64,000 bases of DNA from a virus. The stretch covers positions 1 to 64,000 of IMG/VR virus record IMGVR_UViG_3300029951_000013. One strand, written 5' to 3'. Below are positions 5,128 through 53,833 of the stretch, piece after piece (the first letter of the stretch is position 1; every line of letters begins with the position of its first letter). The position numbers and the translations under genes are program-made. The notes under the pieces were generated by a model that saw only the letters and a program-made list of their open reading frames with translations, was not told where the DNA came from and did no database searches.

Positions 5128-5774
5128 TGGGCCAGCACCGGACCAACCGCACTCCCCCTCTGACCGTGAGCGTCGCGATACCCACGATCCCCGGGCGCGA
5201 GGCGCTGCTCCGCCGGGCGGTCGCCTCGGTCCACGCCCAGGAGCGCCAGGCCGACGCCATCCTGGTCGAGCGGGACGCCGGGCGCACCGGTGCCGCGCAG
5301 GCCCGGAACCGTCTGCTGGAGCGGTGCACCACCGATGTGGTCGCGTGGCTGGACGACGACGACCTCCTGCGGCCGAACCACCTCAAGGCCTGCCTGAGGG
5401 TCCTGACCAGCAGCCCTGGGACGGACCTCGTCTATCCGAGGCCCAGAATGTCCGGCGGCCAGGACCCCACCGCGACCACCTACCGCGGCCGGTTCCCGGT
5501 CGAGCCCTGGGGCATCCGCTGGCAGCCCGAGCTGGAGCGGCACCTGCGCACCCACGGCTCCTTCATCCCCATGACGCACCTGGTGCGCACCGACGCCGTC
5601 CGCAAGGCAGGCGGCTTCCCCGAGGGCCGCACCCTGCCGACCGGCCGCTACCAGGGAGAGGACGAGCGGTACCTGATCGCGCTGCTGGACACCGGTGCCC
5701 GGTTCGGACACCTGGATGCGGTGACATGGACCTGGACGGTCAACCCGGACAGCACCGCCGGGAGGCCCGCGTGA
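5127..5774 (+). CDS. Glycosyltransferase family 2 (GT-A)
   Basis: VSVAIPTI, ARNR, WLDDDD and EDE motifs. Confidence 0.85.
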   Translation: MGQHRTNRTPPLTVSVAIPTIPGREALLRRAVASVHAQERQADAILVERDAGRTGAAQARNRLLERCTTDVVAWLDDDDLLRPNHLKACLRVLTSSPGTDLVYPRPRMSGGQDPTATTYRGRFPVEPWGIRWQPELERHLRTHGSFIPMTHLVRTDAVRKAGGFPEGRTLPTGRYQGEDERYLIALLDTGARFGHLDAVTWTWTVNPDSTAGRPA

Positions 5775-6223
5775 ATGCCGCCGTCCGGTTCGCTGCCGCA
5801 TACGCCGCTCTCACCGCCTCGCACAAATTTGCGGATCACTGGATCCAGGTCGACGCGCAGGCCACCGCCAAGGGCGACCCCGGCACAGCAGGGCGTCTTG
5901 CGTGCGCGTCCCATATCGCCACGTACACCGTGACGCAGGGTCTCGCACTGCTGGCTGCCGACAGACTGCTCGGCCTACGTCTCAGCCCGGGACGTACTGC
6001 CGCCGCGCTGGCCGTCTCAGCCGGGACGCACTATGCGGCAGACCGTCAGGCGGGACACTGGCGGGACGAGGCACCACGCGGGGTTGCCCGCCTCGCCACA
6101 GCCACCGGGCACGCGAGCTGGCTCCAACGGGACCCGAATTCCCCCTACCTGCTCGACCAGGCATGGCACGAAGGATGGATCTTCATTGCCGCTCTGGTTG
6201 CAGCAGGACGCGGGACAGGCTGA
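5771..6223 (+). CDS. DUF3307-like membrane protein
   Basis: H..ADHWIQ...K, H...Y, THY..D and DQAWH motifs; GTG overlaps the upstream stop. Confidence 0.7.
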   Translation: MNAAVRFAAAYAALTASHKFADHWIQVDAQATAKGDPGTAGRLACASHIATYTVTQGLALLAADRLLGLRLSPGRTAAALAVSAGTHYAADRQAGHWRDEAPRGVARLATATGHASWLQRDPNSPYLLDQAWHEGWIFIAALVAAGRGTG

Positions 6224-6326
6224 GACGCTGGACTGAGACACCGTGGGACAGGGCCGGGACGCGCAACGCGTCCCGGCCTTCAATGCGTCCCGGGACTCGC
6301 TGGACACGGCGTCTCAGTTGGTCTAG

Positions 6327-6340
6327 GATTTAACTAAATC
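6327..6340. promoter_or_regulatory. Palindromic operator candidate GATTTA-AC-TAAATC, upstream of a TACGAT -10
   Basis: Perfect 6-2-6 inverted repeat in an AT-rich intergenic patch. Confidence 0.6.
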
Positions 6341-6372
6341 GCTTAGTTACGATCACGGACCAGGAGGACCCC

Positions 6373-7134
6373 ATGGTCAGAGCTGCAGCACGGCTGGAGA
6401 CGCCGAGGTATCGCGCCCTGAGCCGGTCCGTCCGGCAGCGTCTCGCGCCCTACCCCGGCGGACCTGAACGGTGGATCTGGGTTCCAGTGGACCTGGACGG
6501 GCAGTGGGAGCCGCTGGCCCGGGACAGGGCCGCCGCCCCGTCCCTCTGGGAGATCGTCAGGAAGGGTGTCAGCCGGGTCACGGTAGAGATCGACGCCTGC
6601 AACCGGTACCCGGCGGAGCAGTGGGAGGTCGGGGTGATCGGCATCCGTCATCGCACTGAGACCGAGGTCTACACCGGTGCCCGCAACTACGTGCAGAGCC
6701 TCCTACTGTTCCTGGACGTCTCGCTGACACTGGGACAGCGTCCCGGCGACAGCCTGTCGGAGACGCGTCCCAGCGTCCCGTCTTCGGCCGTCCCGTTTCA
6801 GCGCGACGCTGGGACGCGTCCCGGAACGAGGTCGATCGGAGACGTCCCACGTGGGACGCACCCGCCGGTCGTCTACGTGCTGCGCAACGGGACGCGCGTC
6901 AAGATCGGGACGACCACCCACCTGCGCAACAGAGTGCACCGTCTCGCGTTGCGTCTCGATGACGTGGTGTTCGCCATGGACGGCGGCCGGGAACTGGAGC
7001 AGGCGTTGCACCAGCGTTTCGCCGCACAGCGTGTCGGGGACACCGAGTGGTTCACCGAGACGGGCGCTCTGGCAGCCTTCATCGCAACGCACAGCGGTGA
7101 GACGCACCGCGGCGAGACAGGAGTGTCCCAGTGA
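6373..7134 (+). CDS. T5orf172/GIY-YIG-domain protein
   Basis: C-terminal VVYVL..G.RVKIGTT...R...LE..LH.RF...R...EWF; AGGAGG RBS. Confidence 0.8.
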   Translation: MVRAAARLETPRYRALSRSVRQRLAPYPGGPERWIWVPVDLDGQWEPLARDRAAAPSLWEIVRKGVSRVTVEIDACNRYPAEQWEVGVIGIRHRTETEVYTGARNYVQSLLLFLDVSLTLGQRPGDSLSETRPSVPSSAVPFQRDAGTRPGTRSIGDVPRGTHPPVVYVLRNGTRVKIGTTTHLRNRVHRLALRLDDVVFAMDGGRELEQALHQRFAAQRVGDTEWFTETGALAAFIATHSGETHRGETGVSQ

Positions 7135-8069
7135 TGTGGCGTCGCAAGAACCGTCCCAGCCAGTCGGCTACCGAAACGGAAGCGAAGTCCTACCGGAAGG
7201 ACCGGTTCGTTCGGTCCGCTTCCGAAACGGAGACCGGACTGGGCTGGGTCGATCTGCTGACCGACTGGGGCCGCCCGCTGGTTGCTGCCATCGTCCTGGT
7301 CATGTGCGCCCCCGGAGAGCATTTCCTGGCTCGGCTCGCGGGTTGGAACCAGTGGCTGGCCTGGGGCATGCCCGCTGTCCTGACTGCCTACGCGGGCATC
7401 GCCGCCGTCGTAGCAGCCAAACGGCCTCGGAAGACCGAAGGCAAGGCCACCGCCGTCGCCGGCGCGGTCGTTTCCGTCCTGCTGGCTATGGCTGCCCAGC
7501 CGGTGGCGCACCTGCTGATGCTGACCGGTCCTTGGGACACTCGGCACACCGTCACGCTGGTCGTCTCGTGCATTCCGTCCCTGGTGCTGGGACACCTGCT
7601 CCACCTCGCGGCGTCCCAGAAATCGAAGCGCGCCCCGTCCCAGCGTCGCACCGCAGTCGTCCCGTCCCAGAACGGCGTCGCAGCCGCAGCGTCTCCGGGA
7701 CGCGACGCCGTCTCAGCATCCGTGTCTCGCCGAGCTGTCTCTGAGACGCCTCGGGCCGATAAGCGTCTCAGCACTGAGACGCCGCTCGCGCAGATCGAAG
7801 GTGTCCCCGAGACGCCGAGTGTTGCGGAGACGCTGTCCCACTTTCCGGCTGGGACGGGGAGCGTCTCGGAGGACGACCTCCTCACCACGGCTGAGGCGGC
7901 GCAAGCTGCGTCCCAGGCGCGCGGTGAGACGGTCAAGCCGTCCACGGTCCGCACCTGGAAGAGCCGGGGTCACCTCACCCCGGCAGTCGATGAGGACATG
8001 ACGCTCTACCGTCGCGGCGACGTTCTGGCCTACGCGACACGCAACACCGTCCCGGTCACCGGCGACTGA
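7131..8069 (+). CDS. DUF2637/Spd-like membrane protein with C-terminal excisionase/MerR-type HTH
   Basis: Four hydrophobic segments, a low-complexity linker, then LLTTAEAA...VKPSTVRTWKSRGHL..LYRRGDV. Confidence 0.7.
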   Translation: MMWRRKNRPSQSATETEAKSYRKDRFVRSASETETGLGWVDLLTDWGRPLVAAIVLVMCAPGEHFLARLAGWNQWLAWGMPAVLTAYAGIAAVVAAKRPRKTEGKATAVAGAVVSVLLAMAAQPVAHLLMLTGPWDTRHTVTLVVSCIPSLVLGHLLHLAASQKSKRAPSQRRTAVVPSQNGVAAAASPGRDAVSASVSRRAVSETPRADKRLSTETPLAQIEGVPETPSVAETLSHFPAGTGSVSEDDLLTTAEAAQAASQARGETVKPSTVRTWKSRGHLTPAVDEDMTLYRRGDVLAYATRNTVPVTGD

Positions 8070-8107
8070 GACGCACTCGACCATCTGACCAGAGAGCAGG
8101 CCGACCA

Positions 8108-8539
8108 ATGACCACGCCGTCCATGACCAAGAACGCCGCTCCGCAACAGCAGGGCAACACCGGCTCCAGCCGTCTCAACGCGCTGATCCAGGCGCTGGAG
8201 ACGGTGCAGATCGAGAACCAGTACGACCTGCACGAGTTCTGCGAGGCGCTGCGGGGCCTGGGCCACAGGCTCGCGGTGGAGACCATGATGGGCTCCCACG
8301 AGCTGGAGGCCGGGCTCAAGGAGCAGGCCAAGGCGGACGCCACTCTCGGTATCCCGGGCTTCGACTCGCGCCGGGCCATCCGGGGCACGATCCGCCAGTT
8401 CAAGTCCTGTGCGGACCACTTCGCCTCGGCGGCCGGGTGCGCCGCCGCCGGCTGGACCTCCTTCGAGAAGAACTTCGACCAGGCCCTGTCCCGCAAGCCG
8501 AAGGCCGCCAAGCGCGGCGGCTTCAAGATCGAGGGGTGA
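8108..8539 (+). CDS. TraA-like plasmid transfer protein (putative)
   Basis: Small helical ORF directly upstream of traB, as in Streptomyces plasmids. Confidence 0.45.
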   Translation: MTTPSMTKNAAPQQQGNTGSSRLNALIQALETVQIENQYDLHEFCEALRGLGHRLAVETMMGSHELEAGLKEQAKADATLGIPGFDSRRAIRGTIRQFKSCADHFASAAGCAAAGWTSFEKNFDQALSRKPKAAKRGGFKIEG

Positions 8540-8548
8540 GGTGCGGAC

Positions 8549-10576
8549 ATGACTGCCAAGATCGTCAATCACGTCGAGGAGAAGGTCCGAGAGAACAGCG
8601 CGCCGTGGCTGACCTGCGCGGCAGCCATGCCCGTCGCCTTCGTCACGCACGCCGCCTGGGGTGGGGACCCGGCCATGCAGGACGTCATCGCCGCCAGCGT
8701 GCCGGTCATGGCGGGGTGGACCTACCACACCTGGAGCCGCCGCCACGAGCACACCCGGGCACTGGCCACGATCATCGCGGCCTCCGTCACCGGTTGGACG
8801 GCGCTGGCCACCTCCATCTCCCCGTGGACCCCCGGCATGGTGGATTCCTGGTTCATCGGGGGCACCCTGCTCAGCATCATGTGGAACACCCGGCACCTGG
8901 CCCACAAGCCCGCTGCCGAGAGCGACAGGACTTCGGCGCGCGAGGATGGCCTGACCGAGGCCGTAGGCGGCTCGTTGAAGGGCAGCAAGGTCCGCAACAT
9001 CAAGACCAAGCTGGGTCGCGTCGAAGCGGACATCCAGCTCAGCCCAGGTGAGACGGTCGACGGCGTCCAGATGGACAAGGGCCGGATCGCCTCCGTCGCC
9101 AAGGTGGGGACTGAGGAGGTCTCCGTCATCGGCGAGAGGGGCCGGGCCGACCGCCTCAAACTGGTCTTCCAGGCCAACAGCACTCTGGAGCGAGTGGTGC
9201 GCTGGAAAGGCCCGTCCGCTCCGGGGAAGTCCATCGCGGACGCCCCGCTACGGATCGGCGAGCGGGCCGACGGCAGTCCGCTGGAGCTGTGGATCGTCGG
9301 CAAGGACGACGACGAGGACCCCCGATCCCTCCCGCACACCCTGGTCACAGGCATGACAGGCTCCGGCAAGACTGAGACCGTCAAGACAGCGATCATCGAC
9401 ATGCGGTCCCGCACCGACGTGGTCCCGGTGGTCGGAGACCCGGCCAAGTTCGCCCAGTCCTTCGGCGAGATCGCCGACATGCTGGGTATCGCGGCCGTCA
9501 ACAAGCAGCAGTGCGCCCAGCTGATCCGGAACCTGCCCGGAACCATCGCCTACCGCGCCGAACTGCTGGGCAACCTGGTCCGCTCGGACGGCGGGATCGG
9601 CTATCCCCAGTGGGAGCCGGAGTGCTGGACCGAACACGGCATCCCGCTGGTGTTCATCGACATCGAGGAAGCCACCGACATGGTGGGCGAGGACATGGAC
9701 GAGCCGCTGCGGAAGGCGCGTTCGGTCGGACTCCCCCTATCGGTGTCCTTGCAGGTCGCGGTGTACCGCAACCTGGCCCGGGAGACCCGCGGCCAGTTCG
9801 CCAATGCCCTCGCGCACGGCTGCAAGGAAGACCTGGACGCCAAGTTCGCCCTGTCCTCGGCCACGCGTGAGGCGGGGGCCGACCCGACCAAGTGGGGCGC
9901 CGACAGCCCGGGCTCGCTGTACGCCGAGCTGATCGGCACGCCGGTCGAGAAGTGGCCGGTGGAGGCCCGGAACTACCGCTTGACCAGGGAGGAGAAGCAG
10001 GCGGAGAAGGAAGCCAGCCGGGCGACCTGGGCCACCCTCGACCCGGGAACCGCCATGGTCCTGGGTCGGGGCATCCCAATGCCGGACGCGAAGATCACCA
10101 CCATGCTGCCGCCGGTTCCGACCGACGTACCGGCCACGGCTTACCCGGCTGGAATGGCGATGCTGCACAGCCTGGCAGGGGGCACGGCTGAGGAGCCGGA
10201 AGAGCCCGCCACCGACCTGACCAGGGTCGACACCGAAGAAGGAGACATGGACATCACCCGGAAGCTGGCCCGGCCCACCGGGGAGCCGGTCGCCCTGTGC
10301 GGCCCCTCCGAGAAGGTGCGCATGACCACCGATGCCGCCCGCGCCCTGGTCGAGCAGCGGATCGACGTGCTGGAGGCCAGCAACCGGATGGAGGTCGGCT
10401 ACGACGACCTGGCCGACCTGGCCAGTCTGACCGGGCGCCGCCCTAACTGGGTCTACGACGAACTCCACCGGCTGGTCGAGTCGGGCCGCCTCAAGGAGGG
10501 CGCGAGCGCCAAGCCGCCGTACCTGATCTGCGGCAGCGGCAAGGTGCTCCAGTTCCAGGGCCACGGGTCACGGTGA
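8549..10576 (+). CDS. traB: TraB-like FtsK/SpoIIIE conjugative DNA translocase
   Basis: N-terminal TM helices; Walker A HTLVTGMTGSGKT; Walker B FIDIEEA; KARSVG..L.VSLQ; C-terminal wHTH. Confidence 0.85.
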   Translation: MTAKIVNHVEEKVRENSAPWLTCAAAMPVAFVTHAAWGGDPAMQDVIAASVPVMAGWTYHTWSRRHEHTRALATIIAASVTGWTALATSISPWTPGMVDSWFIGGTLLSIMWNTRHLAHKPAAESDRTSAREDGLTEAVGGSLKGSKVRNIKTKLGRVEADIQLSPGETVDGVQMDKGRIASVAKVGTEEVSVIGERGRADRLKLVFQANSTLERVVRWKGPSAPGKSIADAPLRIGERADGSPLELWIVGKDDDEDPRSLPHTLVTGMTGSGKTETVKTAIIDMRSRTDVVPVVGDPAKFAQSFGEIADMLGIAAVNKQQCAQLIRNLPGTIAYRAELLGNLVRSDGGIGYPQWEPECWTEHGIPLVFIDIEEATDMVGEDMDEPLRKARSVGLPLSVSLQVAVYRNLARETRGQFANALAHGCKEDLDAKFALSSATREAGADPTKWGADSPGSLYAELIGTPVEKWPVEARNYRLTREEKQAEKEASRATWATLDPGTAMVLGRGIPMPDAKITTMLPPVPTDVPATAYPAGMAMLHSLAGGTAEEPEEPATDLTRVDTEEGDMDITRKLARPTGEPVALCGPSEKVRMTTDAARALVEQRIDVLEASNRMEVGYDDLADLASLTGRRPNWVYDELHRLVESGRLKEGASAKPPYLICGSGKVLQFQGHGSR

Positions 10577-10814
10577 GTTGACGCCCTCTCGTACACGGCT
10601 CCGGTCGTGTTCGGGAGAGTGGCAATCCGCCACATATCCGGACATTACGGCACCGGAAACTGAACCAGTCTCGTTCAGGGACAAATGATCACAGACCAGG
10701 ATCTTACGGCGTGTCCGTTCGGTACGTCCGGAGCGCCGGAAACCGCCTCTGACCTTAGACAGTCATGTGTTTCCGTTCGATGCCGTGCGCCGAAACGGAG
10801 AGGACCGAACTTCC

Positions 10815-11027
10815 ATGATCCGCTTTCTTGCCGCAGCCGTCCACGGAGCCGCCGCTCTGGCGCTCCTGCTGATAGCCGCCGCAGCGCTGACCGCCATGAG
10901 CGCGGGCTGGGGCTTCCTCGCCCTGGCGCTGTGCGTCGTCTTCGCCGACCAGCTCCTGCTCTGGCCGCTGTGGGCCGCCACCGGCCGCGACCCGGGCTGG
11001 CACCCGGTACGCGGCTGGATCCGGTGA
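10815..11027 (+). CDS. Small membrane protein (Spd-like)
   Basis: Two hydrophobic segments; GAGAGG RBS; downstream of traB. Confidence 0.55.
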   Translation: MIRFLAAAVHGAAALALLLIAAAALTAMSAGWGFLALALCVVFADQLLLWPLWAATGRDPGWHPVRGWIR

Positions 11028-11155
11028 CGCGCTGGCGGCCCGACTCCCACAAGGGCGGCCGTCGGGCCTCCAAGGCGGGGATCTTCCTCGGCCGCACGAT
11101 CCTCGTCCTGTGCTTCGTCCTGCTCCCCTTCGTCCACCACTGAAAGGAACGACCC

Positions 11156-11662
11156 GTGACCACTGACCAGAACGCCGACCGCCTCCCGGTACGCACTGCC
11201 GACCCCGGCCCGCTGGCGCAGTTCGACCGGCGCGGCTTCCCGCTCCTGCCGCTGCCGGAGCCCGACGGGGTTATGAACGGCACCGGCCCGGAGCAGCACG
11301 TCCACATCCACCACCACTACGCCTCCGAGGCTCTGACACAGCAGCCGGTCCGATCGGACGACCAAGCGGGCTGGCTGCTGCTCAACCGGATGGCGCCGTA
11401 CTTCATCGCCGCCGCCCTGGTGGTCTTCCTCGTCGGCGGCGTCATCGCGGTTCTGGCCTACGTCTTCACCTTCGTCATGGCCGTGCTGGTCGTCCTGATT
11501 CACAGCCTGGTCGCTGTCACGGTCACCGCGGTCGTCGCCCTGGGCGGGGTCGCGCTGCTGGCCGGGGTCCTGCGGCCCCTGTTCACCGGCCCGAGCATTA
11601 CCGTGCAGGGGAGCAGGAACCGGGTCGACTCGGCCCCCCTGTCCCGGAACGGAGCGAAGTGA
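11156..11662 (+). CDS. Membrane protein (Spd-like)
   Basis: AAAGGA RBS; HVHIHHHY then a long hydrophobic stretch. Confidence 0.6.
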   Translation: MTTDQNADRLPVRTADPGPLAQFDRRGFPLLPLPEPDGVMNGTGPEQHVHIHHHYASEALTQQPVRSDDQAGWLLLNRMAPYFIAAALVVFLVGGVIAVLAYVFTFVMAVLVVLIHSLVAVTVTAVVALGGVALLAGVLRPLFTGPSITVQGSRNRVDSAPLSRNGAK

Positions 11663-12369
11663 CCGGAAGAATGATCGTGGTCGTCCCCACCCGGGGGCGG
11701 CCGGACAACGCGGCCCGCCAGCAGGAAGCCCTCCGGCTGGCGGGCACGTCCGTAGCGGACACCGTCTATGTCGTGGACCACGACGACCCGGCGGTCCTGG
11801 ACTACTGCCGTCTGGGACTGCCCAAGATCGACATTCTGGACAGCGGTCCGGGCGGGACAGGCATGGTCGCGGCCCTGAACGCCACGGCGGTGCGGTACGC
11901 CGACGCCTACGAAGCCGTCGGGTTCATGGGCGACGACCACCTCCCGCGCACCGCCGGCTGGGACGTGCGGATCCTGGAGGCGTTCGCGGCCGAGGTCCCC
12001 GGAGAGTGGAGTCCGGGGGTGGCCTACGGCAACGACCTGCTCCAGGGCGCGAACCTGCCGACGGCCGCATTCCTCCCGTCCATGGTGGTCAGCGCCCTCG
12101 GCTACATGGCGCCGCCTGTGCTGAAGCACCTCTATGTCGATAATTTCTGGATGGAGTTGGGCCGACGGCTCAGCGGCCTGACCTACCTGGACGACGTCGT
12201 GATCGAGCACATGCACCCGATCGCCAACAAGGGCGCCTGGGACGCGGGGTATACCCGGGTCAACGCCTCGGCCGTCGACACCGCCGACCGGCTGGCTTGG
12301 GAGCAGTTCCGCGACAACGGCGGGATGGACGCGGCCGTGGCCCGGATCCGGGGGGTGTACGGACTGTGA
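11659..12369 (+). CDS. Glycosyltransferase family 2
   Basis: VVVPTRGRP, VVDHDD, FMGDD, YVDN and IEHMH motifs. Confidence 0.85.
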   Translation: MTGRMIVVVPTRGRPDNAARQQEALRLAGTSVADTVYVVDHDDPAVLDYCRLGLPKIDILDSGPGGTGMVAALNATAVRYADAYEAVGFMGDDHLPRTAGWDVRILEAFAAEVPGEWSPGVAYGNDLLQGANLPTAAFLPSMVVSALGYMAPPVLKHLYVDNFWMELGRRLSGLTYLDDVVIEHMHPIANKGAWDAGYTRVNASAVDTADRLAWEQFRDNGGMDAAVARIRGVYGL

Positions 12370-12962
12370 GCAGCGCGACTGTCTCCGTAGTGATCCCGAC
12401 CATCGCACCGCGCCGGGCCCTGCTGGACCGGGCGGTCGAGAGCGCGCAGCTCCAGACGCTCGGACGCGATGCCGTGGACATCATCGTGGTCGAGGACAAG
12501 CAGCACCTGGGTGCTGCGGCTACGCGGAACCGGGGGCTCAGCTTCGCTGAGACGCCGTGGACCGCCTTCCTGGACGACGACGACACCCTAGAGCCCGAGC
12601 ACCTGGAGAAGCTGCTGGCCTATGCGCAGCGCCTCGACGCCGACCTGGTGTACCCCTGGTTCCACCTGCCGAACGGCACGGACCCGTTCCCGGACCGGTT
12701 CGGGGTGCCGTTCGACGCCGCCGAGCTGGCCCGGCGGAACTACATCCCGGTCACCGTGCTGGCCAGGACCGTGGCGATCCAGGCTGTGGGCGGCTTCCGA
12801 GCGCTCAATACGTCTACGGAGCCCGGGGCCTCCCCCTGTGAGGATTGGGGCTGTTGGCAAGCCATGCTTGCGGCCGAGGCGCGGTTCGTCCACCTGCCGG
12901 AGCGCACCTGGACCTGGAACTGGCACGGCAGGAACACCAGTGGAAGGGGTGATCGGTGGTGA
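12366..12962 (+). CDS. Glycosyltransferase family 2
   Basis: VSVVIPTI, TRNRGL, FLDDDD, EDW; paralogous to 5127-5774. Confidence 0.85.
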   Translation: MSSATVSVVIPTIAPRRALLDRAVESAQLQTLGRDAVDIIVVEDKQHLGAAATRNRGLSFAETPWTAFLDDDDTLEPEHLEKLLAYAQRLDADLVYPWFHLPNGTDPFPDRFGVPFDAAELARRNYIPVTVLARTVAIQAVGGFRALNTSTEPGASPCEDWGCWQAMLAAEARFVHLPERTWTWNWHGRNTSGRGDRW

Positions 12963-13065
12963 GGACGCTTATCTTCCGCTGGTTCGTCTGCCCGCTGATC
13001 GGCCACGGCCCGGTGATCGACCCGTTCGCCTCGTCCACCTGCCGGGACTGCCTCAGGAGGTTCAG

Positions 13066-14037: not shown

Positions 14038-14144
14038 CGCATGCCTTGACACCGCATCGAATTCCGAGCAGGCCCGGCGGAGAATCGTCCCGATAGAGTC
14101 TCTTCGCCCGGAAGCCTAAAGAATCTTGATATATCCCTATCGTT

Positions 14145-14217
14145 GCAGCTCAGAGCGTTGCAGTTGGGTTGACGGCTTCATTGGGTCATGAGATAGTTAA
14201 ATCAAGCAAGAGAGAAC
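14145..14217 (+). promoter_or_regulatory. Strong sigma70/HrdB-type promoter, copy 1 of a 73-bp direct repeat
   Basis: TTGACG(14169)-17-GATAGT(14192); 72/73 identical to 17299-17371. Confidence 0.8.
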
Positions 14218-17267: not shown

Positions 17268-17298
17268 GCTTAAAGAATCATGGACTTTCTGTAAAGTA

Positions 17299-17371
17299 GC
17301 AGCTCAGAGCGTTGCAGTTGGATTGACGGCTTCATTGGGTCATGAGATAGTTAAATCAAGCAAGAGAGAAC
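17299..17371 (+). promoter_or_regulatory. Strong promoter, copy 2 of the 73-bp direct repeat
   Basis: TTGACG(17323)-17-GATAGT(17346). Confidence 0.8.
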
Positions 17372-44196: not shown

Positions 44197-44205
44197 CTTC
44201 ACCCC

Positions 44206-45111: not shown

Positions 45112-45150
45112 GGCTCACTCCTCCCGCTCGGACTGTGGACTGACAGCGGA

Positions 45151-47051: not shown

Positions 47052-47195
47052 TTAAAGCGCTGCGACCTCAGAATTGTCGGATGTCTCTTGGGGGTCCCCC
47101 GCTGCCTCCGGGCCTGCCGCCTGCTGGATCGGCGCTGGTGCCTGGACGGGCGGTGTCTGGTACGGCGGGGGCAGCTGGTTGCCGCAGTTGCACAT
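47052..47195 (-). CDS. 47-aa MCNCG protein (not in the ORF track)
   Basis: AGGAGG RBS; MCNCGNQLPPPYQ... Confidence 0.6.
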   Translation of the reverse strand: MCNCGNQLPPPYQTPPVQAPAPIQQAAGPEAAGDPQETSDNSEVAAL

Positions 47196-47204
47196 CGTGT
47201 CCTC

Positions 47205-47318
47205 CTAGACCGTGCGCTCGGTGAAGCGGAAGATCCGGGTGCCGAACTGCCACCAGGACGCCTTCCGCCGGGTGTTGCTGGCCACATCGAAGTACTCGGT
47301 GCGGTAGTAACCGATCAT
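47205..47318 (-). CDS. 37-aa hypothetical protein (not in the ORF track)
   Basis: ATGA coupling; MIGYYRTEYFDV... Confidence 0.45.
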   Translation of the reverse strand: MIGYYRTEYFDVASNTRRKASWWQFGTRIFRFTERTV

Positions 47319-50300
47319 GCGTCCGCCTTCACTCGTTTGGCCAGCATCTCCAGGACCCGGCGCATCGCCATCTGGTCCAGGTCGTGCTCGCTGGGTCCAG
47401 CCACGCCCGGCGCCACGGTGGGCTGACCTGCGGCGACCAGCGCCACCTGGGCCCCGGCGGAGACCCGGGCGCGCATACGCGGCACCGGGAACCCCGGCAC
47501 GTTGACGGCCAGCAGGCCGACCAGGCGCAGCTTGCCGCCGATGCGCCGCCAGTCGCCGGACACCTGGCCCGCCGCACGCAGTGCCGCCACCTTCCCCGCG
47601 TCCGCGTCAGCCCGGATCGAGCCGGCGACCCAGATGCCGTGGACGTCGTTGCCCACGACCACGTCGGCCACTGCCCATCCGGTGTGGTCGTAGTGCTCCT
47701 TGGCCGCCTGGGCCCCGACGTTGAGGCTGGCGTGGCCGGTGCCGACGGTGATCTGGCCGACGGAGGCGGTAGTGCCGTCGTCCAGGCCGACCTCCCCGGT
47801 CATGTAGTAGGCGTGGTAGTCCTCGCGCGGCGGCTGGACGCACTGCCCGGTCTGGCCGATGTGGCAGGTCCCCCACTGCGCGGCGTGGCCGTAGATCCGG
47901 CCGGAGTCGGACACGGTGATCGGGGTGGGCACCGACAACCCCGGGTCGGCGAACCACTCGGCGGGCGGAGTGTAGACGCCGAGGGAGGCGGTGACCGCCC
48001 CGGTCTCGTCAGGCTCCTCGACCTGGGCGGCCTCCCACTCGGCCGGGTCCATCGCGCCGCCGGCCACCACAGCGCCGGTGTCGGCGTCGGTGAGCTGGAT
48101 GTACGCGTCCTTGAACGCGGGTATGTCGCACAGGGTCGCCGCGCGGATCTGGCCGCCGTGGAAGATGACCTTCTCCGGCTGGGCGAAGAGCATGGCGAAG
48201 ATGTCCTCTTCGTCGTCGCCCTCGTTGTTCCGCTCGGGCCAGACCATCTCGATATCGGCATCGCCGATCGAGTCGGCGTCGATGCTGACTCCGCGGACGA
48301 AACGGCCCGCGATCTTGTCGCGCGCGGCCACGCCGTTCGGGTCGGAGAGGTCGAGGACGCCGGTGGCCTGGATCTGGTTGCCGACCCGCTGGATCGTGTC
48401 GATCCGGCCGACGTTGACCGCTACCGTCCTCGGCTCCCCGCCGTGGGAGTCCTGGATGTTCCAGCGCAACGGGATCGGCGGGTCCTGCCAGGTCAGCGCG
48501 TCCGGCGCGAACTCGCGGCCGTCGCCGGTGGTCACGCCCTCCACCGCGAGGACACCCGACCACGGCGCGGTCGGACCGCCGGGCGCGATGACCGGAGCAG
48601 GCTGGATCGCCGGGGCTCCGGTGGCTGCTGCGGCCTTGAGGTTGTCCGGCACCGGCTCCTTGATGGCGTTGTAGTGCGCCACCAGGTGGGACTTCGCCGC
48701 CGCGACGGCCGCCGGGCTGTGCCCGGTCAGGCTGCTAAACCGGCCTGCTGCCGCGGCCAGTCCGGCGCGGTTCAGCTCGCCGTCCGGGTCGTGGTGCGGC
48801 AGGAAGCACTCCTCCTCGGGAGTCCCGTTGCCGGGGTCGCAGGCGGCCGACGCCGTCTTGTACTGCACGGGGGTGAAGTTCGAGGGACTGCCGTCCCAGG
48901 GTGCGTCGCTGACGGTGTTGCTGGAGCCGAAGTGCGCAGCGTCGTCCGGGCACTCGGCGCAGGGCGCACCGCCGCTGTCGGACATGCCGCTGGGGGCGGT
49001 GCTCCCGTCCGGCTTGTTCTTGCTCAGCCGCTTGTCCTTGGCGGTCCCCTTGTTCGGCTTGCCGCCGAGCTCTTCCTCAACAACGGTGGTCACGGGCGTA
49101 CCCTCCTCGGCGGATGCCAGCATCCCCTGGTCCCAGACAGCGTAGATCGTGCCCCGGCAGTTACCGCCCCCTAGGCAGTCGGCATAGCCGCCGCCCGGGT
49201 AGGCGTCCTCGGCGTCGTCCAGCGAATTGAACGCCTTTCCGTCGACTGATTGACAGGGCTGACATGTCCGGTCGTCCAGAATCTCGGTGGCGTAGTAAGT
49301 GGCTGGAGGCGCGGCTTCCAGCACGGCGATGCGTCCGGCGTTCTGGGCAGCCGACATGGCCTCGCCCAGCCACTGCTTGTCGAAAGCGTCGGACAGGCCC
49401 TGTAGTGCCAACTCCACCTCGGACGCGAGCCTGATCCCGGAGAGGACGCTGAACAGGCCCATCGCGCGGTGCTTCGCGGCCTGCACCAGCCGGTTGCCCA
49501 TGGTGTCGGCGGCGATGGACGCCACCTGGCGCAGCAGGTCGAGACCGGCCAGCGCAGCGACCCGGCCCGGTTCCAGACTCCAAGGCGGGACGTGGACGCC
49601 CTGCTGCTCGGCCTCCTGCTGCTGCGCCACCCCGGCGGCCTGCGCAGTAGTGCGCATCCGGCCGTACAGGGTGTCGGCGGCCGTGTCCGTGGTGATGGAC
49701 AGCGTGGACAGGGCATCAGTGCCGCCGGCCAGGATCTGGTCCTTGATCTGGGTGCGCCAGTCGGCGGTGACCGCCTGCCAGTCCGTCAGGGCCCCGTTCA
49801 CGGCCTGCTGCCAGCTGCGCTGGTGTGCCGCGAAGTCGACGCGTGCGGCCAGCTCGGTGGCGTTCGGCAGGCGGCGGAACTCGTCCGGGCGCTTCGCCCG
49901 CTTCGGCTTAGCGGCGGCGGTGATCGCGGTGCCGGTCGCGGCCAGGCTCGCGGTCAGCGGGATGTCCGTGTCCTCGTTTCCGAAGCTGACGCGGATCCGG
50001 TCGAACGTCACCGGGCCGAGTTTCGCCTCCAGCGTGGAAGCCAGGCTCAGGTCGTCGGTGTAGGCAGCGCAGATGTGCGCCACCCACGGACTGTGCTGGT
50101 CCGGCAGCGGAACCGGATCGCCGCCGCGCTGCTGGTGGAGCATCAGCGCGTCCTGGACCGCCATGGCCGCCAGCTGGTGGAAGTCGTCCAACGGGCAGTC
50201 CGCAGCGTCGGCGTCCGGGTTGTCGCCGACGTTCCAGACCCAGGACGCGCCCGGGCTGTCGCCGTTCCAGTGTCCGATGCCGAAGACCTTGGTGGTGACT

Positions 50301-50632
50301 TGGTCCTGGTCGCCGGGGTACTGGTGCAGGGCGGCGATGATGTTCTGCTGCACTTCGGGCGGGAACGCCGAGGCGTCACCGCCGAGGAACATCAGCGTGC
50401 AGTGCAGCTCAGCCGCCACCTCGCCGCCCTTGACCGCGAGCCGCTTGGCATCGGCTGGAGTCGGCATCAGTGCGATCATGGCCCCGGAATGGGCGTCCGC
50501 GCCGGCGTCGGACGCCAGCATCCGGCGGCCGTGGGCGGACTGTACGTGGTGGCCGCGCTGATGGAGCTGCTCGACCACCGGCTGGCCGTCCCGGGTGCCG
50601 ATACGCAATCGGGACGGTGTTCCCTCAGACAT
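47315..50632 (-). CDS. Fusion of 2H phosphoesterase, MuF-like head morphogenesis domain and capsid maturation protease-like domain
   Basis: LHCTL and AHIC 2H motifs; EILDDRTC.PC..VDG...C.GG.NCRG; EG..TGDGR, GVSID, CHIG, SGDWR. Confidence 0.75.
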   Translation of the reverse strand: MSEGTPSRLRIGTRDGQPVVEQLHQRGHHVQSAHGRRMLASDAGADAHSGAMIALMPTPADAKRLAVKGGEVAAELHCTLMFLGGDASAFPPEVQQNIIAALHQYPGDQDQVTTKVFGIGHWNGDSPGASWVWNVGDNPDADAADCPLDDFHQLAAMAVQDALMLHQQRGGDPVPLPDQHSPWVAHICAAYTDDLSLASTLEAKLGPVTFDRIRVSFGNEDTDIPLTASLAATGTAITAAAKPKRAKRPDEFRRLPNATELAARVDFAAHQRSWQQAVNGALTDWQAVTADWRTQIKDQILAGGTDALSTLSITTDTAADTLYGRMRTTAQAAGVAQQQEAEQQGVHVPPWSLEPGRVAALAGLDLLRQVASIAADTMGNRLVQAAKHRAMGLFSVLSGIRLASEVELALQGLSDAFDKQWLGEAMSAAQNAGRIAVLEAAPPATYYATEILDDRTCQPCQSVDGKAFNSLDDAEDAYPGGGYADCLGGGNCRGTIYAVWDQGMLASAEEGTPVTTVVEEELGGKPNKGTAKDKRLSKNKPDGSTAPSGMSDSGGAPCAECPDDAAHFGSSNTVSDAPWDGSPSNFTPVQYKTASAACDPGNGTPEEECFLPHHDPDGELNRAGLAAAAGRFSSLTGHSPAAVAAAKSHLVAHYNAIKEPVPDNLKAAAATGAPAIQPAPVIAPGGPTAPWSGVLAVEGVTTGDGREFAPDALTWQDPPIPLRWNIQDSHGGEPRTVAVNVGRIDTIQRVGNQIQATGVLDLSDPNGVAARDKIAGRFVRGVSIDADSIGDADIEMVWPERNNEGDDEEDIFAMLFAQPEKVIFHGGQIRAATLCDIPAFKDAYIQLTDADTGAVVAGGAMDPAEWEAAQVEEPDETGAVTASLGVYTPPAEWFADPGLSVPTPITVSDSGRIYGHAAQWGTCHIGQTGQCVQPPREDYHAYYMTGEVGLDDGTTASVGQITVGTGHASLNVGAQAAKEHYDHTGWAVADVVVGNDVHGIWVAGSIRADADAGKVAALRAAGQVSGDWRRIGGKLRLVGLLAVNVPGFPVPRMRARVSAGAQVALVAAGQPTVAPGVAGPSEHDLDQMAMRRVLEMLAKRVKADA

Positions 50633-52490
50633 GAGCGCGGCCGTTCACCCGGCTGTGCGGAGTGACCAGGGTGGACTCCATGGCCGTCGTGTCCAGATAC
50701 GGCGACAGGCCGTCCAGGCGCACGCGGCCGAAGGCGTCCAGGTGGCACAGGTAGGTGCCGGGCGTTCCGGGGATCGCCGCCGGGGCGTCCTGCATCACCG
50801 CCTCGGTGAAGGGGCACGAATAGGAGTGGTCCCGGCAGACATCGGGGTGCCGCAGGTCCCAGCGTCCGTCCAGCCGGAACAGCACCGCGTGCTGGACCTT
50901 CCCCTGCCGCACCCGCCGCGCCAACTCCGGGTTGACCGCCGCCGCTTGGGTCGGCGGCCCTGCGGCGGGAGCCGGGGCAGCGGGCACCGTCGGTCCGGCG
51001 GGCGGCGTGTGCTCGTCCGGCTCGCCGGTCTGGCCGGGGGCCGGGATGACGCCCTGGATCTCCTGCGCCGCGCCCGGGCCGGAGGTGGCCGGGGTGACCA
51101 GCTCGGTGCCGGTCAGGACGTCCAGCGCACCGGGGGCCGCGCCGTGCGCGAGCCGGATCAGGGATTTGAGGCCCTGGTCCCGCAGATCCTGCGGAGTCGG
51201 TGCGTCGTCCTCGCTCATACCGATCTCGCGCCGGTACGCCTGCCCGCTCAATTCCAGCCGGTCGTAGGCGTTCTGAGCGTTGATGCTCTTGTCCGGACGG
51301 AGTGTCAGCTCGGACAGGTCGTACCAGACGACGATGCTGGGGTCGGTCACGCCAGCGGCTGCCAGCAGGGGCTGGAGGTAGCCTGTGGTCAGTGCGGCGC
51401 AGATGATCTCAGCCAGCGGAGCTATGTGGACCTTGAGTCCGGACTCCTCGACGGCCCACGCCGACCAGTGGTTACTGTCGCCCAGGCCGAGCATGACGTC
51501 CGAGGGGATGTCGAGCTGGGTGGCCACGCGGCGTATCGCCTGATCCCGCTTGTTGATCACCTGGTCGTCTATCTTGAGGGTGAAATCCAAGTGCTGGACG
51601 TCCTTGACCCACTCCGCCGGTACCCGCAGCGGGATCGGGATCACAGCGGATGCGGTTCCCGGCGTCTTGATCGCCTCGGCGGCGACCGTGATCCACTCCT
51701 CCATGAAGGGGTCTTCGGCGTCGGCGAACTCCTCGCGCGCCGGGAAGGACACCTCCTCCGGCAGGATCAGTACTCCCGCTGAGGCGAGGCGGCTCAGGTA
51801 CTGTGCCGTGATGTGCCGGTTGACCAGCTCCAGCTCCCGCATGGCGGTCAGCGCGGACCGGGCTGGGCTGGTGGCTAGGTGGTAGAAGCGGTCGTGTGGA
51901 CGCCACACCCGGATCGGGACCATGGAGTCCTCGGCCAGGGGCCGCCAGACCGTCCCCAGGTTCGGGTTGTTCTCGTCGGTGACCTCGTAGCCAGTCCGCC
52001 CGGTCACCGCGCCCACCGCGCGGACCTCGTCCACCGCGCGCACCTGCCAACGGTAGAGGCCGTTGACCTTCTCGCCGATCAGGTACCCCTCGCCGGGGAC
52101 CGAGAGCTGGACCGTGAGCCGCTTCATGATCTCGGACCGGCCGCCGATGCCGTTGCCGAGCTGCTGGATCAGGTCGGCGGCCGGTCCGGTGTCCAGGACG
52201 GTGGGCTCGTCGTTGCCGGGCTCCATCTGGCCCGCCCGGAGCCGTACCCGGGACAGCATGTTGGCCAGCCAGCTCACCCCGTAGTTGAACTCCCCCAGGG
52301 TGTCGAAGTACCCCCACACCTCGTTCTGCCAGCGGTCGGTGTGGCGCATGAACTGGGCGGAAGGCCCGGCGGCCGGGACGGCGGCGGCGGTGACCGCGGA
52401 CGGTTCGGCTGCGGCGGTCAGAGACGCGGGCTCAAGCCCGGCCTCGTCGGGCAGCATCCGCCGGTACCCGACGTTGTGGTACCAGGCCAT
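50625..52490 (-). CDS. Portal protein
   Basis: WQ.E.W..FD..GE, VWRPH.R....TSP.R, SRLA.AG.L, NHWSAW; GGAGG RBS. Confidence 0.85.
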   Translation of the reverse strand: MAWYHNVGYRRMLPDEAGLEPASLTAAAEPSAVTAAAVPAAGPSAQFMRHTDRWQNEVWGYFDTLGEFNYGVSWLANMLSRVRLRAGQMEPGNDEPTVLDTGPAADLIQQLGNGIGGRSEIMKRLTVQLSVPGEGYLIGEKVNGLYRWQVRAVDEVRAVGAVTGRTGYEVTDENNPNLGTVWRPLAEDSMVPIRVWRPHDRFYHLATSPARSALTAMRELELVNRHITAQYLSRLASAGVLILPEEVSFPAREEFADAEDPFMEEWITVAAEAIKTPGTASAVIPIPLRVPAEWVKDVQHLDFTLKIDDQVINKRDQAIRRVATQLDIPSDVMLGLGDSNHWSAWAVEESGLKVHIAPLAEIICAALTTGYLQPLLAAAGVTDPSIVVWYDLSELTLRPDKSINAQNAYDRLELSGQAYRREIGMSEDDAPTPQDLRDQGLKSLIRLAHGAAPGALDVLTGTELVTPATSGPGAAQEIQGVIPAPGQTGEPDEHTPPAGPTVPAAPAPAAGPPTQAAAVNPELARRVRQGKVQHAVLFRLDGRWDLRHPDVCRDHSYSCPFTEAVMQDAPAAIPGTPGTYLCHLDAFGRVRLDGLSPYLDTTAMESTLVTPHSRVNGRAHV

Positions 52491-52703
52491 AGCACTGTCC
52501 TCCCGCCGGTCCGGTTGGGCCCAAGGTACCGCCGGTTCCGGGGGCGATCGTCCCGGGCGCGATAGCGGCACCGCAGTCCCGGTCCGGCGCTGCGCTTGCC
52601 CGGGTACTGGGCGATCCACCAGACTCAGGGCAGTGCCCTTCCTGCACTGGCTCGGAATCGGGATGACAGGGCGGGACCACCGTGTTGGCGCACGGCCCGC
52701 CGG

Positions 52704-52737
52704 GAGCCGGCACCCCTGCAAGGGTGCCGGCTCTTTC
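52704..52737. terminator. Strong stem-loop
   Basis: GAGCCGGCACCC-6-GGGTGCCGGCTC then TTTCC. Confidence 0.55.
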
Positions 52738-52747
52738 CGTAGGCGTC

Positions 52748-52775
52748 GCTCTCGATAATCTGCCTTATCGAGAGC
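52748..52775. other. dif/loxP-like recombination site
   Basis: GCTCTCGATAA-TCTGCC-TTATCGAGAGC, perfect 11-6-11 inverted repeat 53 bp upstream of the recombinase. Confidence 0.75.
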
Positions 52776-52828
52776 CAGAATCAGCGTGTTTCTGCGATTC
52801 GATCAATCAGACCTGAGACAATCAGGTC

Positions 52829-53833
52829 ATGACACCAGGCGAACTGACCCTCTTCGGATCATCAGATCACGCGCAGGCCCTGGCAGACCGGGCTCTGTCC
52901 GACCGGACGCGCGACCGCCTGGAGCGGTCGGTGCCGGAGAACACCCGGCGAGCCTACGCCCGGCAGTGGACCCAGTTCGCGAACTGGTGCGCGGCGCAGG
53001 GCCGTACCGACCTCCCGGCCACCGGGCACACCCTGGCCGAGTACACCGGCCACCTCGCCGACCTCGACCGGGCGCCCGCGACGATCGAGCAGGCGATCGC
53101 CGCCGTCCGCACCGCGCACCGCACCGCCGGGTACCGCCAGCAGCCGGACACCTGTGACGCCCTGGCCGTCCTCAAGGTCCACAAACAGGACCGGGCGGAA
53201 GCCGGCAAGCGGAAGCGGAAGGCGCCCCCGGTCACCCTGGAGCCGCTGCGCGCCATGGTCGAAACTACCGACCCGGGCACCCTCGCCGGGAAGCGGGACC
53301 GCGCGCTGCTCGTCCTCGGCTTCGCCATGATGGCCCGCCGCTCCGAGCTGGCCGTTCTGCGCATCGCCGACATCAGGTTCACCGATGACGGGCTCACCGT
53401 CACCGTGCGGGCCAGCAAGACCGACCAGGACGCCGAAGGCGTCGAGGTCAACATCCCGGCCGGCGTTCACCCCGACACCGACCCCGTCCGGGTGGTCCGG
53501 GCGTGGCTGGCCGCCCTGGCCGGACTCGGGGTGACCGGGGGATCGCTGCTGCGCAGCGTCGACCGCTGGGGACGGCTCGGTGCGAGCATGACCGGCGAGG
53601 CCGTCAACGAGGCAGTACAGCGGCGGGCCGCTACGGCGGGTCTGGAGGACGCCGGGGCCTACAGCGCCCACGGCCTGCGGGCGGGCGGGCCCACCGAGGC
53701 CGCCCGGGCCGGGCACCCGGTCAGCTTTATCGCCGAGCACGGCCGCTGGTCCAAATCGTCGCCGGTGGTGTACGAGTACGTCCGCGCGGTAGACAAGTGG
53801 CGGGACAACCCGATGCGCGGGATCGGTCTCTGA
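52829..53833 (+). CDS. Cre-like tyrosine recombinase
   Basis: NTRRAY, RDRALL..GF...RRSEL, SKTDQ, HGLRAG, HGRW, YEY; no arm-binding N-terminal domain. Confidence 0.92.
   Translation: MTPGELTLFGSSDHAQALADRALSDRTRDRLERSVPENTRRAYARQWTQFANWCAAQGRTDLPATGHTLAEYTGHLADLDRAPATIEQAIAAVRTAHRTAGYRQQPDTCDALAVLKVHKQDRAEAGKRKRKAPPVTLEPLRAMVETTDPGTLAGKRDRALLVLGFAMMARRSELAVLRIADIRFTDDGLTVTVRASKTDQDAEGVEVNIPAGVHPDTDPVRVVRAWLAALAGLGVTGGSLLRSVDRWGRLGASMTGEAVNEAVQRRAATAGLEDAGAYSAHGLRAGGPTEAARAGHPVSFIAEHGRWSKSSPVVYEYVRAVDKWRDNPMRGIGL

Follow-up and report, generated by a model that had tools for sequence, protein, structure and literature searches.

A TraA/TraB-like transfer module with upstream site arrays in an uncultivated siphovirus of Streptomyces-like actinomycetes and its relatives

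Organization of the tra block

The DNA analysed here, called the window throughout, is the first 64,000 bases (72%) of a single 88,895-base record, the IMG/VR virus entry IMGVR_UViG_3300029951_000013 (class 'linear', CheckV completeness 100%), and it is part of the 88.0-kb genome of an uncultivated siphovirus of Streptomyces-like actinomycetes. We focus on a block of genes at 5.8-12.4 kb, the tra block, which resembles the transfer module of small Streptomyces plasmids. The original prediction had described the element as a conjugative phage-plasmid with complete virion genes, a TraB/Spd module and Cre/lox-like resolution. Read from left to right, the predicted module would comprise an operator-controlled promoter, a GIY-YIG-like open reading frame (ORF), a membrane protein, TraA, TraB, a cluster resembling clt (the transfer locus that acts in cis) and two or three small membrane proteins.

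The traA-like and traB genes of that prediction were both recovered with NCBIfam models. The traA-like gene (8108-8539, plus strand) matches NF041213 (plasmid_TraA; E 1.1e-12, 48 bits against a cut-off of 80) and is 27% identical to the annotated TraA of a Streptomyces canus plasmid. The traB gene (8549-10576, plus strand) encodes a putative FtsK-like translocase of double-stranded DNA (dsDNA) with a C-terminal winged helix; residues 10-651 of its 675 align to positions 3-624 of the 639 in NF041214 (plasmid_TraB; E 1.9e-108, 363.7 bits). Its Walker A motif is GMTGSGKT (residues 268-275), and the stretch VFIDIEE was read as Walker B. An AlphaFold 2 (AF2) model, built with 26 homologues and with a mean predicted local distance difference test (pLDDT) of 75, shows four N-terminal helices, the motor, a disordered linker and the C-terminal winged helix, and its best Protein Data Bank (PDB) matches are FtsK motor domains (E 5e-15, template modelling score by target 0.55), followed by the conjugation coupling protein TcpA. 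The winged helix is predicted with helices in 594-645 and a strand at 658-660 at pLDDT 83-89, in a segment that appears conserved in the 26 homologues.

In tblastn searches TraB matched 52 plasmid records, 46 of them from Streptomyces, and 19 plasmid records covered at least 80% of the query. Many of the matched plasmid proteins are annotated as traB and share 26-28% identity over ~95% of TraB, and no match was returned from 50,697 phage records. The subfamily counts 266 proteins at E <= 1e-20 in a set of 5.8 billion proteins, many of them on contigs of 60-100 kb.

Upstream site arrays and the membrane protein

A dense array of a short motif lies ahead of traA and traB. Between 5907 and 8198, G[GA]GACG (about CTGRGACGC) occurs 54 times, counting both strands, and part of these copies form palindromic pairs. 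These are 54 of the 240 copies in the whole record (hereafter the contig), placed within 2.3 kb upstream of traA/traB where ~6 would be expected. The array overlaps the gene of a membrane protein (7131-8069, plus strand), a predicted Spd-like anchor for which hydropathy, an AlphaFold model and fold matches suggest transmembrane (TM) helices, then a disordered linker whose coding sequence holds part of the array, and finally a winged helix of the BldC/Xis/MerR kind at the C terminus. The hydropathy scan flags five segments, two of them overlapping, and another count gives four TM helices; in the model, residues 167-243 have a pLDDT below 50 and residues 247-304 a pLDDT of 82-87. The fold matches of the C-terminal domain are weak, with the BldC-DNA complex on top (probability 0.97, E 0.35, 36% identity over 52 columns), followed by SoxR, RacA and a mycobacteriophage Xis. 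The constraint on the array acts on the DNA, not on the protein, because one motif on both strands of one frame gives different peptides.

To compare this region across relatives, we used alignment-based scans, in which 32 IMG/VR loci and four Streptomyces contigs carry the TraB subfamily, giving 33 distinct relatives after pruning. The duplicates L029 (= L006) and L037 (= L009), as well as L045, which lacks upstream DNA, were dropped from the array counts, which leaves 34 distinct elements. Site arrays with lineage-specific motifs lie upstream of traA/traB in all 34 elements, and this is a new observation. The most locally enriched hexamer sits 0.3-2.4 kb upstream of traB in 34/34, with up to 68 copies and a weakest p-value of 7e-11. 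The array motifs across the lineage are GGGACA, CGGACA, AGGACA, GRGACG, CGARAG, GGCTCAGC and TCCGGA; the Streptomyces plasmid pS1D4-14.2, for example, holds at the same place 31 copies of another motif, CGARAG.

The array motif follows the C-terminal domain of the membrane protein, not the winged helix of TraB. A C-terminal domain of the '…DSLKKAIQR' type (type 1) goes with xGGACA in 26/26 elements, the Xis/MerR-like domain with GRGACG in 4/4 and the type 3 domain with CGARAG in 2/2, GGCTCAGC and TCCGGA being represented in this comparison by a single element each. The type-1 pattern is a loose one that also fires in three type-2 proteins and once in L032, and that missed L027 and L048, which were classed by reading. 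The N-terminal part of the membrane protein varies independently of the C-terminal domain. Placing the eight motif classes on a quick tree of TraB takes 12 changes, the minimum being 7, and GRGACG appears in three places. The winged helix of TraB had also been a candidate reader of the upstream array; we rejected it, as L032/L038 and L035/L006 have near-identical helices and different motifs.

The array is thus presumed to consist of binding sites for the C-terminal domain of the membrane protein. Binding by a BldC-like multimer would fit, because motif copies in the arrays follow one another on the same strand; according to PMC5859096, BldC forms head-to-tail oligomers on direct repeats whose number varies.

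A further observation concerns pS1D4-14.2 (L032). At ~8700-9300, downstream of its type-3 gene, another frame still encodes a type-1-like 'DSLKKAIAR' tail, which looks like the remnant of a replaced C-terminal cassette.

Downstream repeats and a plasmid counterpart

The 238-bp spacer directly after traB (10577-10814), of lower guanine-plus-cytosine (GC) content, is a candidate clt. It holds three of the contig's ten copies of CGGAAAC (p ~1e-6 before correction for ~224 words) and one CGAAAC. Among the relatives, 13/34 loci have at least five copies of one hexamer no further than 500 bp from the stop codon of traB (p <= 1e-6), the others being weaker; an example of such a cluster is CTGACA, which occurs 8-10 times at a spacing of 10-13 bp, mostly on one strand. 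TraB hexamers recognise 8-bp repeats in clt, as described in PMC4170104 and PMC4447253.

Past the spacer lie integral membrane proteins beside traB, which agrees with the Spd-like genes predicted there, the likeness to Spd being one of position. A 70-aa protein with two TM helices (10815-11027, plus strand) is Spd-like by position only, and a 57-aa protein has one TM helix (10970-11143, plus strand); only one of these two ORFs may be real, because they overlap. A 168-aa protein with two TM helices (11156-11662, plus strand), also Spd-like by position, has weak homologues after traB in 10/33 distinct related loci. Pfam and NCBIfam gave nothing usable for the small ORFs. In PMC4170104 and PMC4447253, Spd proteins, including the DNA-binding membrane protein SpdB2, are reported to mediate spreading across cross-walls.

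Some relatives carry an alternative N-terminal type of the membrane protein, which is 77% and 66% identical (over the N-terminal 242 and 277 residues) to proteins beside traB on two small Streptomyces plasmids. One of these two, the 17.3-kb S. canus plasmid (L051, NZ_CP108819.1), is arranged as a GIY-YIG gene, a GntR regulator (traR), annotated traA and traB, CCTGACAC repeats and a membrane protein. There, CCTGACAC occurs eight times directly after traB (6570-6680), and the same repeat stands after traB in relatives. The S. canus membrane protein is the one with 77% identity to the relatives' type over its N-terminal 242 residues, and it ends in a type-1-like domain; 33 of the 50 CGCGAC copies on the plasmid fall within 1 kb (7600-8600), in and after the membrane-protein linker. 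Because this plasmid carries the same genes and repeats, the phage module, cis-sites included, would be a plasmid transfer module, and the site array is not special to phages, since a small conjugative plasmid carries one. The repeat of pSVH1 is GACCCGGA.

Conservation of the block in a phage lineage

The tra block is bordered by genes that relatives share. On its left lies a GT2 glycosyltransferase (GT) gene (5127-5774, plus strand), assigned through weak matches to GT families and belonging to the lineage core, with 58-68% identity in 30/33 distinct related loci. On its right lie a GT-A glycosyltransferase gene (11659-12369, plus strand), whose pS1D4-14.2 homologue is annotated as glycosyltransferase family A, and an NAD-dependent epimerase/dehydratase gene (12622-13992, plus strand; PF01370, E 1e-29). 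pS1D4-14.2 keeps the tra block between its GT2 and GT-A/epimerase genes. In the relatives, GT2 stands upstream of traB in 30/33 loci, and GT-A and the epimerase stand downstream in most and upstream of GT2 in a few.

A homologue of the window's major capsid protein (53-69% identity) was found in 25/33 related records and in 20/20 virus records that are at least 90% complete, in a survey that covered all records except that of L040. Nine related records have direct terminal repeats. pS1D4-14.2 shares 41/109 proteins with the contig, in colinear blocks.

Attachment (att) sites around the block were considered and rejected: a repeat search found no att-like repeats flanking it, the best pair being 19 nt with one mismatch and both copies inside genes. 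No recombinase or integrase appeared among the Pfam and NCBIfam matches within 5.8-12.4 kb. The block thus has neither of the two marks of an independent integrated element of the AICE (actinomycete integrative and conjugative element) type, an integrase of its own and flanking att repeats.

The block also shares regulation signals with the phage. The operator GATTTANNTAAATC occurs at four sites with at most two mismatches (2454, 6327, 14190 and 17344), against 0.07 expected. The copy at 6327 overlaps the sole promoter-like site in 5700-12700, TGGACA-17-TAGGAT, which itself overlaps the operator palindrome GATTTAACTAAATC (6301-6340, plus strand) and is likely, judging by its sequence and place, the start of the tra operon. 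This agrees with the earlier claim that the tra genes, which continue directly into phage-type GT genes, share the same operator motif. Next to it lies the GIY-YIG-like ORF (6373-7134, plus strand), with a C-terminal T5orf172/MUG113 domain (MUG113 E 3.8e-07, T5orf172 E 7e-05); in L026 this domain is fused into the membrane protein.

We regard the tra block as a native and ancestral core of the phage genome and not an insert. The original prediction had already held that the tra genes do not look like a separate inserted element, and synteny, co-occurrence with the capsid, the lack of flanking att-like repeats and the shared operator all speak for it.

Two observations from this part of the work stand apart. 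A 76-nt direct repeat lies at window 14142-14217 and 17296-17371 with 97% identity, each copy containing one operator-like site. When genome contigs were searched with a pattern from a single TraB protein, 278 matches included no relatives, whereas an alignment query gave 12 loci, namely four in Streptomyces (39-41%), six of Micromonospora type (28-30%) and two spurious short matches. The six (L010-L015) are TraB relatives on Micromonospora(ceae) contigs at 28-30% identity, three of them in one genome.

Genome map, virion genes and maintenance genes

Matching sequence was found in 24 peat-metagenome runs of 2019, probably from one campaign, of which six are possible sources of the record, and every near relative that has a name is a Streptomyces. 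Megablast of window 26001-51000 gave no match in phages and one match of 0.8 kb in plasmids. The GC content of the window is 65-74% throughout and even along its length, and no tRNA genes were found in the window.

The start of the record (1-716, plus strand) is repeated in diverged form at contig 88001-88698, which self-alignment and Logan contigs identify as a circular or concatemeric junction with a unit of 88,000 bp. The last 895 bases of the record are colinear with the first 716 (83% identity over 716 nt, 92% over 491 nt), and the alignment begins exactly at base 1. We placed Logan contigs from four peat runs on contig 86901-88895. The dominant Logan contig in each of the four runs (up to 26,975 nt, depth 69) continues through 88,000 and, past that point, the dominant contigs depart from the record at 39 places; all 28 of the 28 substitutions checked read as the letters of window positions 128-453, and the loose end of these contigs is window position 717. 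Only short contigs of low depth contain the tail as it stands in the record. Because the dominant contigs join the record end to the window start, the map is circular or concatemeric at 88,000 bp, with the tail representing a minor variant. For the near-terminal repeat, we rejected both a paralogue and a genuine terminal repeat as the source, as wrap-around into a low-depth variant fits the contigs. The circularity that the original prediction had proposed to check is therefore supported by ends that join in the dominant contigs of four runs; such a junction fits a circle, a concatemer or circularly permuted, headful-packaged virion DNA alike.

A full siphovirus morphogenesis set had been claimed for the window, and Pfam and PHROG matches placed its parts at or near the expected positions; the element thus has the complete virion gene set of a phage-plasmid of the P1 or pZL12 kind. 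Most of these genes lie on the minus strand. The large terminase TerL (59227-61599, minus strand), which lies outside the 5771-53833 span of the original prediction, has T4-type N and C domains (Pfam Terminase_6N/6C) and is interrupted by an intein (Hint), supported by Hint_2 and Intein_splicing matches. The portal (50625-52721, minus strand; PF04860, E 2.1e-07) is 56% identical to the annotated portal of pS1D4-14.2. It is followed by an 1105-aa head protein (47315-50632, minus strand) that combines an RNA-ligase/2H-like part at the N terminus with regions of the MuF/portal-associated and protease-like kinds (phrog_859, phrog_18402, phrog_2659); its residues 29-228 match phrog_2659, annotated as RNA ligase, at E 6.9e-21, ahead of the MuF and protease parts. 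The major capsid protein (45151-46908, minus strand; phrog_777, E 1.3e-108) reaches at most ~33% identity to its counterparts in the 877 phage records that match, and therefore the phage is far from cultured ones.

The remaining virion genes are those for the major tail protein (43504-44145, minus strand; phrog_792, E 2.2e-27), a head-tail adaptor (38034-38843, minus strand; phrog_783, E 2.3e-67), Neck1 (36857-37240, minus strand; profile match), a tape measure with a transglycosylase part (32377-36156, minus strand; profile matches) and a 963-aa minor tail protein (29482-32373, minus strand; phrog_24476), which is 41% identical over its full length to the gene after the tape measure in pS1D4-14.2. 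A GH25 endolysin (62707-63675, plus strand; PF01183, E 5.2e-21) completes the set. No sheath family was among the matches of the proteins scanned, and the ORF at 22018-23061 gave nothing usable from Pfam and NCBIfam. Between the head and tail genes, a 940-aa protein (38860-41682) ends in a GDSL lipase/acylhydrolase domain, matches BppU_N weakly and may be a virion-borne esterase. Internal tandem-like repeats were seen at window 33706-34219, where units of ~123 nt with 77-90% identity lie within the tape measure gene, and at 61656-62016, upstream of the terminase.

The Cre-like recombinase with a symmetric site, another element of the original prediction, was confirmed. All 17 of the 17 PDB sequence matches of the tyrosine recombinase (52829-53833, plus strand) are Cre or Tre, at full length and E ~1e-16. 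Its R, K, H-x-x-R, W and Y align with the positions that we take to be catalytic in Cre, and the crystallised Tre chain has F at what is presumably the Cre tyrosine position. The lox/dif-like site GCTCTCGATAA-TCTGCC-TTATCGAGAGC (52748-52775) precedes the start codon of the recombinase by 54 nt; it occurs once in the contig and has perfect 11-nt inverted arms around an asymmetric 6-nt spacer (11-6-11). The Cre-like gene is not shared with pS1D4-14.2, whose tyrosine recombinase differs, and the lineage as a whole does not conserve it.

No rep or par genes had been seen in the window, and the rest of the contig adds only PolA, a D5-type primase-helicase and an SNF2 helicase. ParA (PF13614) and ParB_N (PF02195) had no match in the whole contig. 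On these two families and the phage-type replication genes, the element lacks the plasmid partition or replication-initiator genes of a phage-plasmid, no search of Rep families having been made. Outside the window, a protein at contig 70828-71487 is 34% identical to one annotated as ParB/RepB/Spo0J in pS1D4-14.2 and has no Pfam match; after it, within contig 69723-71487 (L003 9723-11487), comes an ATPase of AAA/ABC type with a fused GNAT acetyltransferase.

Among 20 near-complete relatives, ParA was found in four, a tyrosine recombinase in six and a resolvase in one, and 13/20 lack all three; none of the maintenance genes searched for is as widespread in the lineage as the tra module. Three Streptomyces draft genomes carry relatives as separate contigs of 92-96 kb. 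S. africanus NRRL B-24243 and Streptomyces sp. NRRL S-455 are among the strains with a relative. A plasmid state is plausible for the subclade of pS1D4-14.2 and these three isolates, because they carry the element as a deposited plasmid or as separate contigs; for the window's element it is unproven.

Interpretation

Homology, fold, synteny, site arrays that covary with one protein domain, and the circular map are what the analysis shows. From these we infer DNA binding and DNA transfer, and on balance we think that the module translocates the element's own DNA. In the mechanism that we propose, the BldC/Xis-like winged helix of the membrane protein most likely coats the ~54-site array in and around its own gene, tethering the DNA to the membrane. 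TraB, a presumed hexameric FtsK-like pump, would load on the element's DNA at the clt-like repeats, and TraB, the anchor and the Spd-like proteins would together pump unprocessed dsDNA either across the wall to an adjacent hypha or across cross-walls to adjacent compartments. The Cre-like recombinase and its 11-6-11 site probably circularise or resolve genome multimers, as Cre-lox does in P1. The element would then spread by virions and by direct DNA transfer, which is what the original prediction had proposed as virion spread plus mycelial conjugation; the conserved cis-sites back such a double route.

A broader reading, less likely than not, goes further. A lineage of soil actinophages with genomes of 76-99 kb may use plasmid-derived TraA/TraB/clt/Spd functions as a viral movement system that carries naked dsDNA between compartments, perhaps between mycelia, without virions, even in members without ParA, tyrosine recombinase or resolvase. 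The membrane-anchored DNA-binding protein and its site array would be an undescribed cis/trans component, shared with ordinary Streptomyces plasmids, which holds DNA at the translocation pore.

Several points weigh against the proposed translocation of the element's DNA by this module. The model of the membrane protein has a mean pLDDT of only 58, the protein has no Pfam or NCBIfam family, and tblastn of it against plasmids gave no match. The BldC fold match of its C-terminal domain has an E of 0.35, and a phmmer search of PDB sequences with the C-terminal 73 aa gave nothing beyond a chance match. The association of motif and domain could partly reflect physical linkage, the array lying partly inside the same gene. 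Both transfer proteins fall under the NCBI equivalog cut-offs (364 against 800 bits for TraB, 48 against 80 for TraA), and TraB is therefore classed as a distant subfamily and not as an equivalog. The clt-like cluster is weak in the window, with 3-4 copies, and the comparison of downstream repeats, which by eye suggests that they follow the type of the TraB helix, is confounded by phylogeny. A TraR-like GntR repressor was not noticed near traB, no dedicated search having been made, and the element is known only from metagenome assemblies.

Both the time of transfer, in a lysogenic plasmid or in the lytic cycle, and any plasmid state are inferred, and here the readings part. One possibility is that, during productive infection, the module passes replicating phage genomes through cross-walls to neighbouring compartments without virions, in the way that Spd and TraB serve plasmids once these have entered. 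TraA/TraB and arrays occur in every member found, including the 13/20 near-complete genomes without ParA, tyrosine recombinase or resolvase; the operon lies in the early region under the shared operator; and Thoma et al. (2015; PMC4447253) suggest that homologues of SpdB2, carried by some actinophages, might aid the spreading of phage DNA. However, the absence of lysogeny or maintenance genes is judged on three families searched, and CheckV completeness is an estimate.

About equally likely, and just as tentative, is a plasmid-prophage, in which a circular plasmid resolved by Cre/lox undergoes TraB-driven mycelial conjugation while lysogenic and makes virions only on induction. What suits it is the junction, be it circular or concatemeric, a Cre-like recombinase beside a symmetric site, the deposition of the ParA-bearing pS1D4-14.2 as a complete plasmid and the separate 92-96 kb contigs in three draft genomes. 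However, the contig has no ParA or ParB_N, and ParA and a tyrosine recombinase occur in only 4/20 and 6/20 near-complete relatives, 13/20 having neither these nor a resolvase. The circular map is predicted equally by headful-packaged, circularly permuted phage DNA. The tra operon, moreover, stands behind an operator shared with other early-region promoters, and if this operator binds a prophage repressor, tra would be off in lysogeny. The phage-plasmid interpretation of the original prediction accordingly stands in part: the native tra block, the non-chimeric contig, the joined ends and the Cre-like gene with its site agree with it, but a plasmid state does not follow, given the lack of ParA/ParB_N and of maintenance genes in 13/20 relatives.

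Rather improbable in our view is a role in segregation, in which anchor, array and TraB would keep the element attached to the membrane and drive it into spore compartments in place of ParAB, in a RacA-like or SpoIIIE-like manner and without transfer between cells. Most members lack ParA, the C-terminal domain has RacA-DNA as one of its weak fold matches, and SpdA2/sps of pIJ101 affects segregational stability and not transfer, according to PMC4170104. However, the same genes and repeats occur on a small plasmid where annotation marks traA and traB as transfer genes, transfer is what defines the TraB family, and segregation needs a stable lysogenic state of which most members show no sign.

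A plasmid or AICE inserted into a phage, or an assembly chimera, which the original prediction had itself named as what would refute it, is very improbable, for although the annotated relatives of TraB are found only on plasmids and the 50,697 phage records gave no tblastn match, both fail because synteny across the lineage with 41/109 proteins colinear in pS1D4-14.2, capsid with traB in 20/20 near-complete records, the searches that found neither flanking att-like repeats nor an integrase in the block, the operator and the ends that join in four runs agree, and GC is even along the window.

If the module works as a movement system for naked dsDNA, viruses of mycelial bacteria gain a second, particle-free route of spread. 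This would bear on the expansion of plaques and infections in mycelia, on telling 'plasmids' from 'phages' in soil metagenomes, and on gene flow among antibiotic producers.

Comparison with known systems

Conjugating phage-plasmids are known to us from one Streptomyces case, pZL12, which the original prediction had named as a precedent. pZL12 (GQ919031) is likewise a circular element, of ~90 kb, with siphovirus-type genes and an FtsK/SpoIIIE-like gene in a tra region. One of the two proteins that it shares with the window's element is its Cre-like recombinase, which is 33% identical. However, only 2/109 proteins are shared at E <= 1e-3, and capsid, portal and TraB are unrelated. The precedent thus holds as a functional analogy and not as a relationship, the FtsK-like tra gene being unrelated at E <= 1e-5. 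pZL12 has ParA, ParB and a GntR regulator in a plasmid-like arm, whereas the window's contig lacks ParA and has its tra genes inside a conserved phage early region. pZL12 is cited as conjugative in PMC3583192. Unrelated to it, a far larger lineage, with at least 33 related elements, keeps a TraB system as conserved core with matching cis-sites, and its members have come to light only in metagenomes and, among isolates, as unannotated contigs or 'plasmids'.

The closest named relative is pS1D4-14.2 (NZ_CP041606.1), a 98.8-kb 'plasmid' of Streptomyces sp. S1D4-14 that was deposited as a complete plasmid. It shares TraB (41%), capsid (57%), portal, tail genes, GTs, primase/polymerase and helicase, and it differs in the presence of ParA, another tyrosine recombinase, the CGARAG array and another C-terminal domain. 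Its traB is annotated only as 'hypothetical protein'.

In the open literature searched, we found no TraA/TraB/clt module described in a phage lineage, nor such site arrays. FtsK/SpoIIIE-like genes are noted in some isolated Streptomyces phages in PMC13587820.

The transfer modules of small Streptomyces plasmids (pSN22/pSVH1 type) have the same traA-traB order, an FtsK-like TraB with a C-terminal winged helix, a repeat cluster just after traB, adjoining membrane proteins and a GIY-YIG-type gene nearby. The identity is 26-28%, and the window's module, unlike these, sits on an 88-kb phage genome, has a phage operator beside tra and has its membrane/DNA-binding gene upstream of traA, not downstream of traB.

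The recombinase compares with P1 Cre-loxP in its full-length Cre similarity and in an adjacent inverted-repeat site with an asymmetric spacer. The window site, with 11-nt arms and a 6-nt spacer, differs from it; loxP has a 13-8-13 and dif an 11-6-11 geometry.

The membrane protein at 7131-8069 finds its nearest counterparts among the Spd proteins and the BldC/Xis/RacA class. The latter supplies the top fold matches of its C-terminal domain, which are weak (E 0.35) and come without a sequence match, and in the window's protein the domain would be tethered to the membrane and face dozens of sites. SpdB2 of pSVH1, compared here by description only, binds DNA and interacts with TraB, and SpdA2 of pIJ101 binds a short motif (sps) inside its own gene, both according to PMC4170104 and PMC4447253. 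The DNA binding of SpdB2 is reported there as non-specific, and sps has 2-3 copies in pIJ101, whereas the arrays here have 25-68 hexamer copies each. By analogy of description, not of sequence, the window's protein would combine SpdB2-like and SpdA2-like traits. Its arrays, tied to a membrane-anchored putative DNA-binding domain and present also on a small conjugative plasmid, offer a testable handle on how the long-obscure Spd proteins engage DNA.

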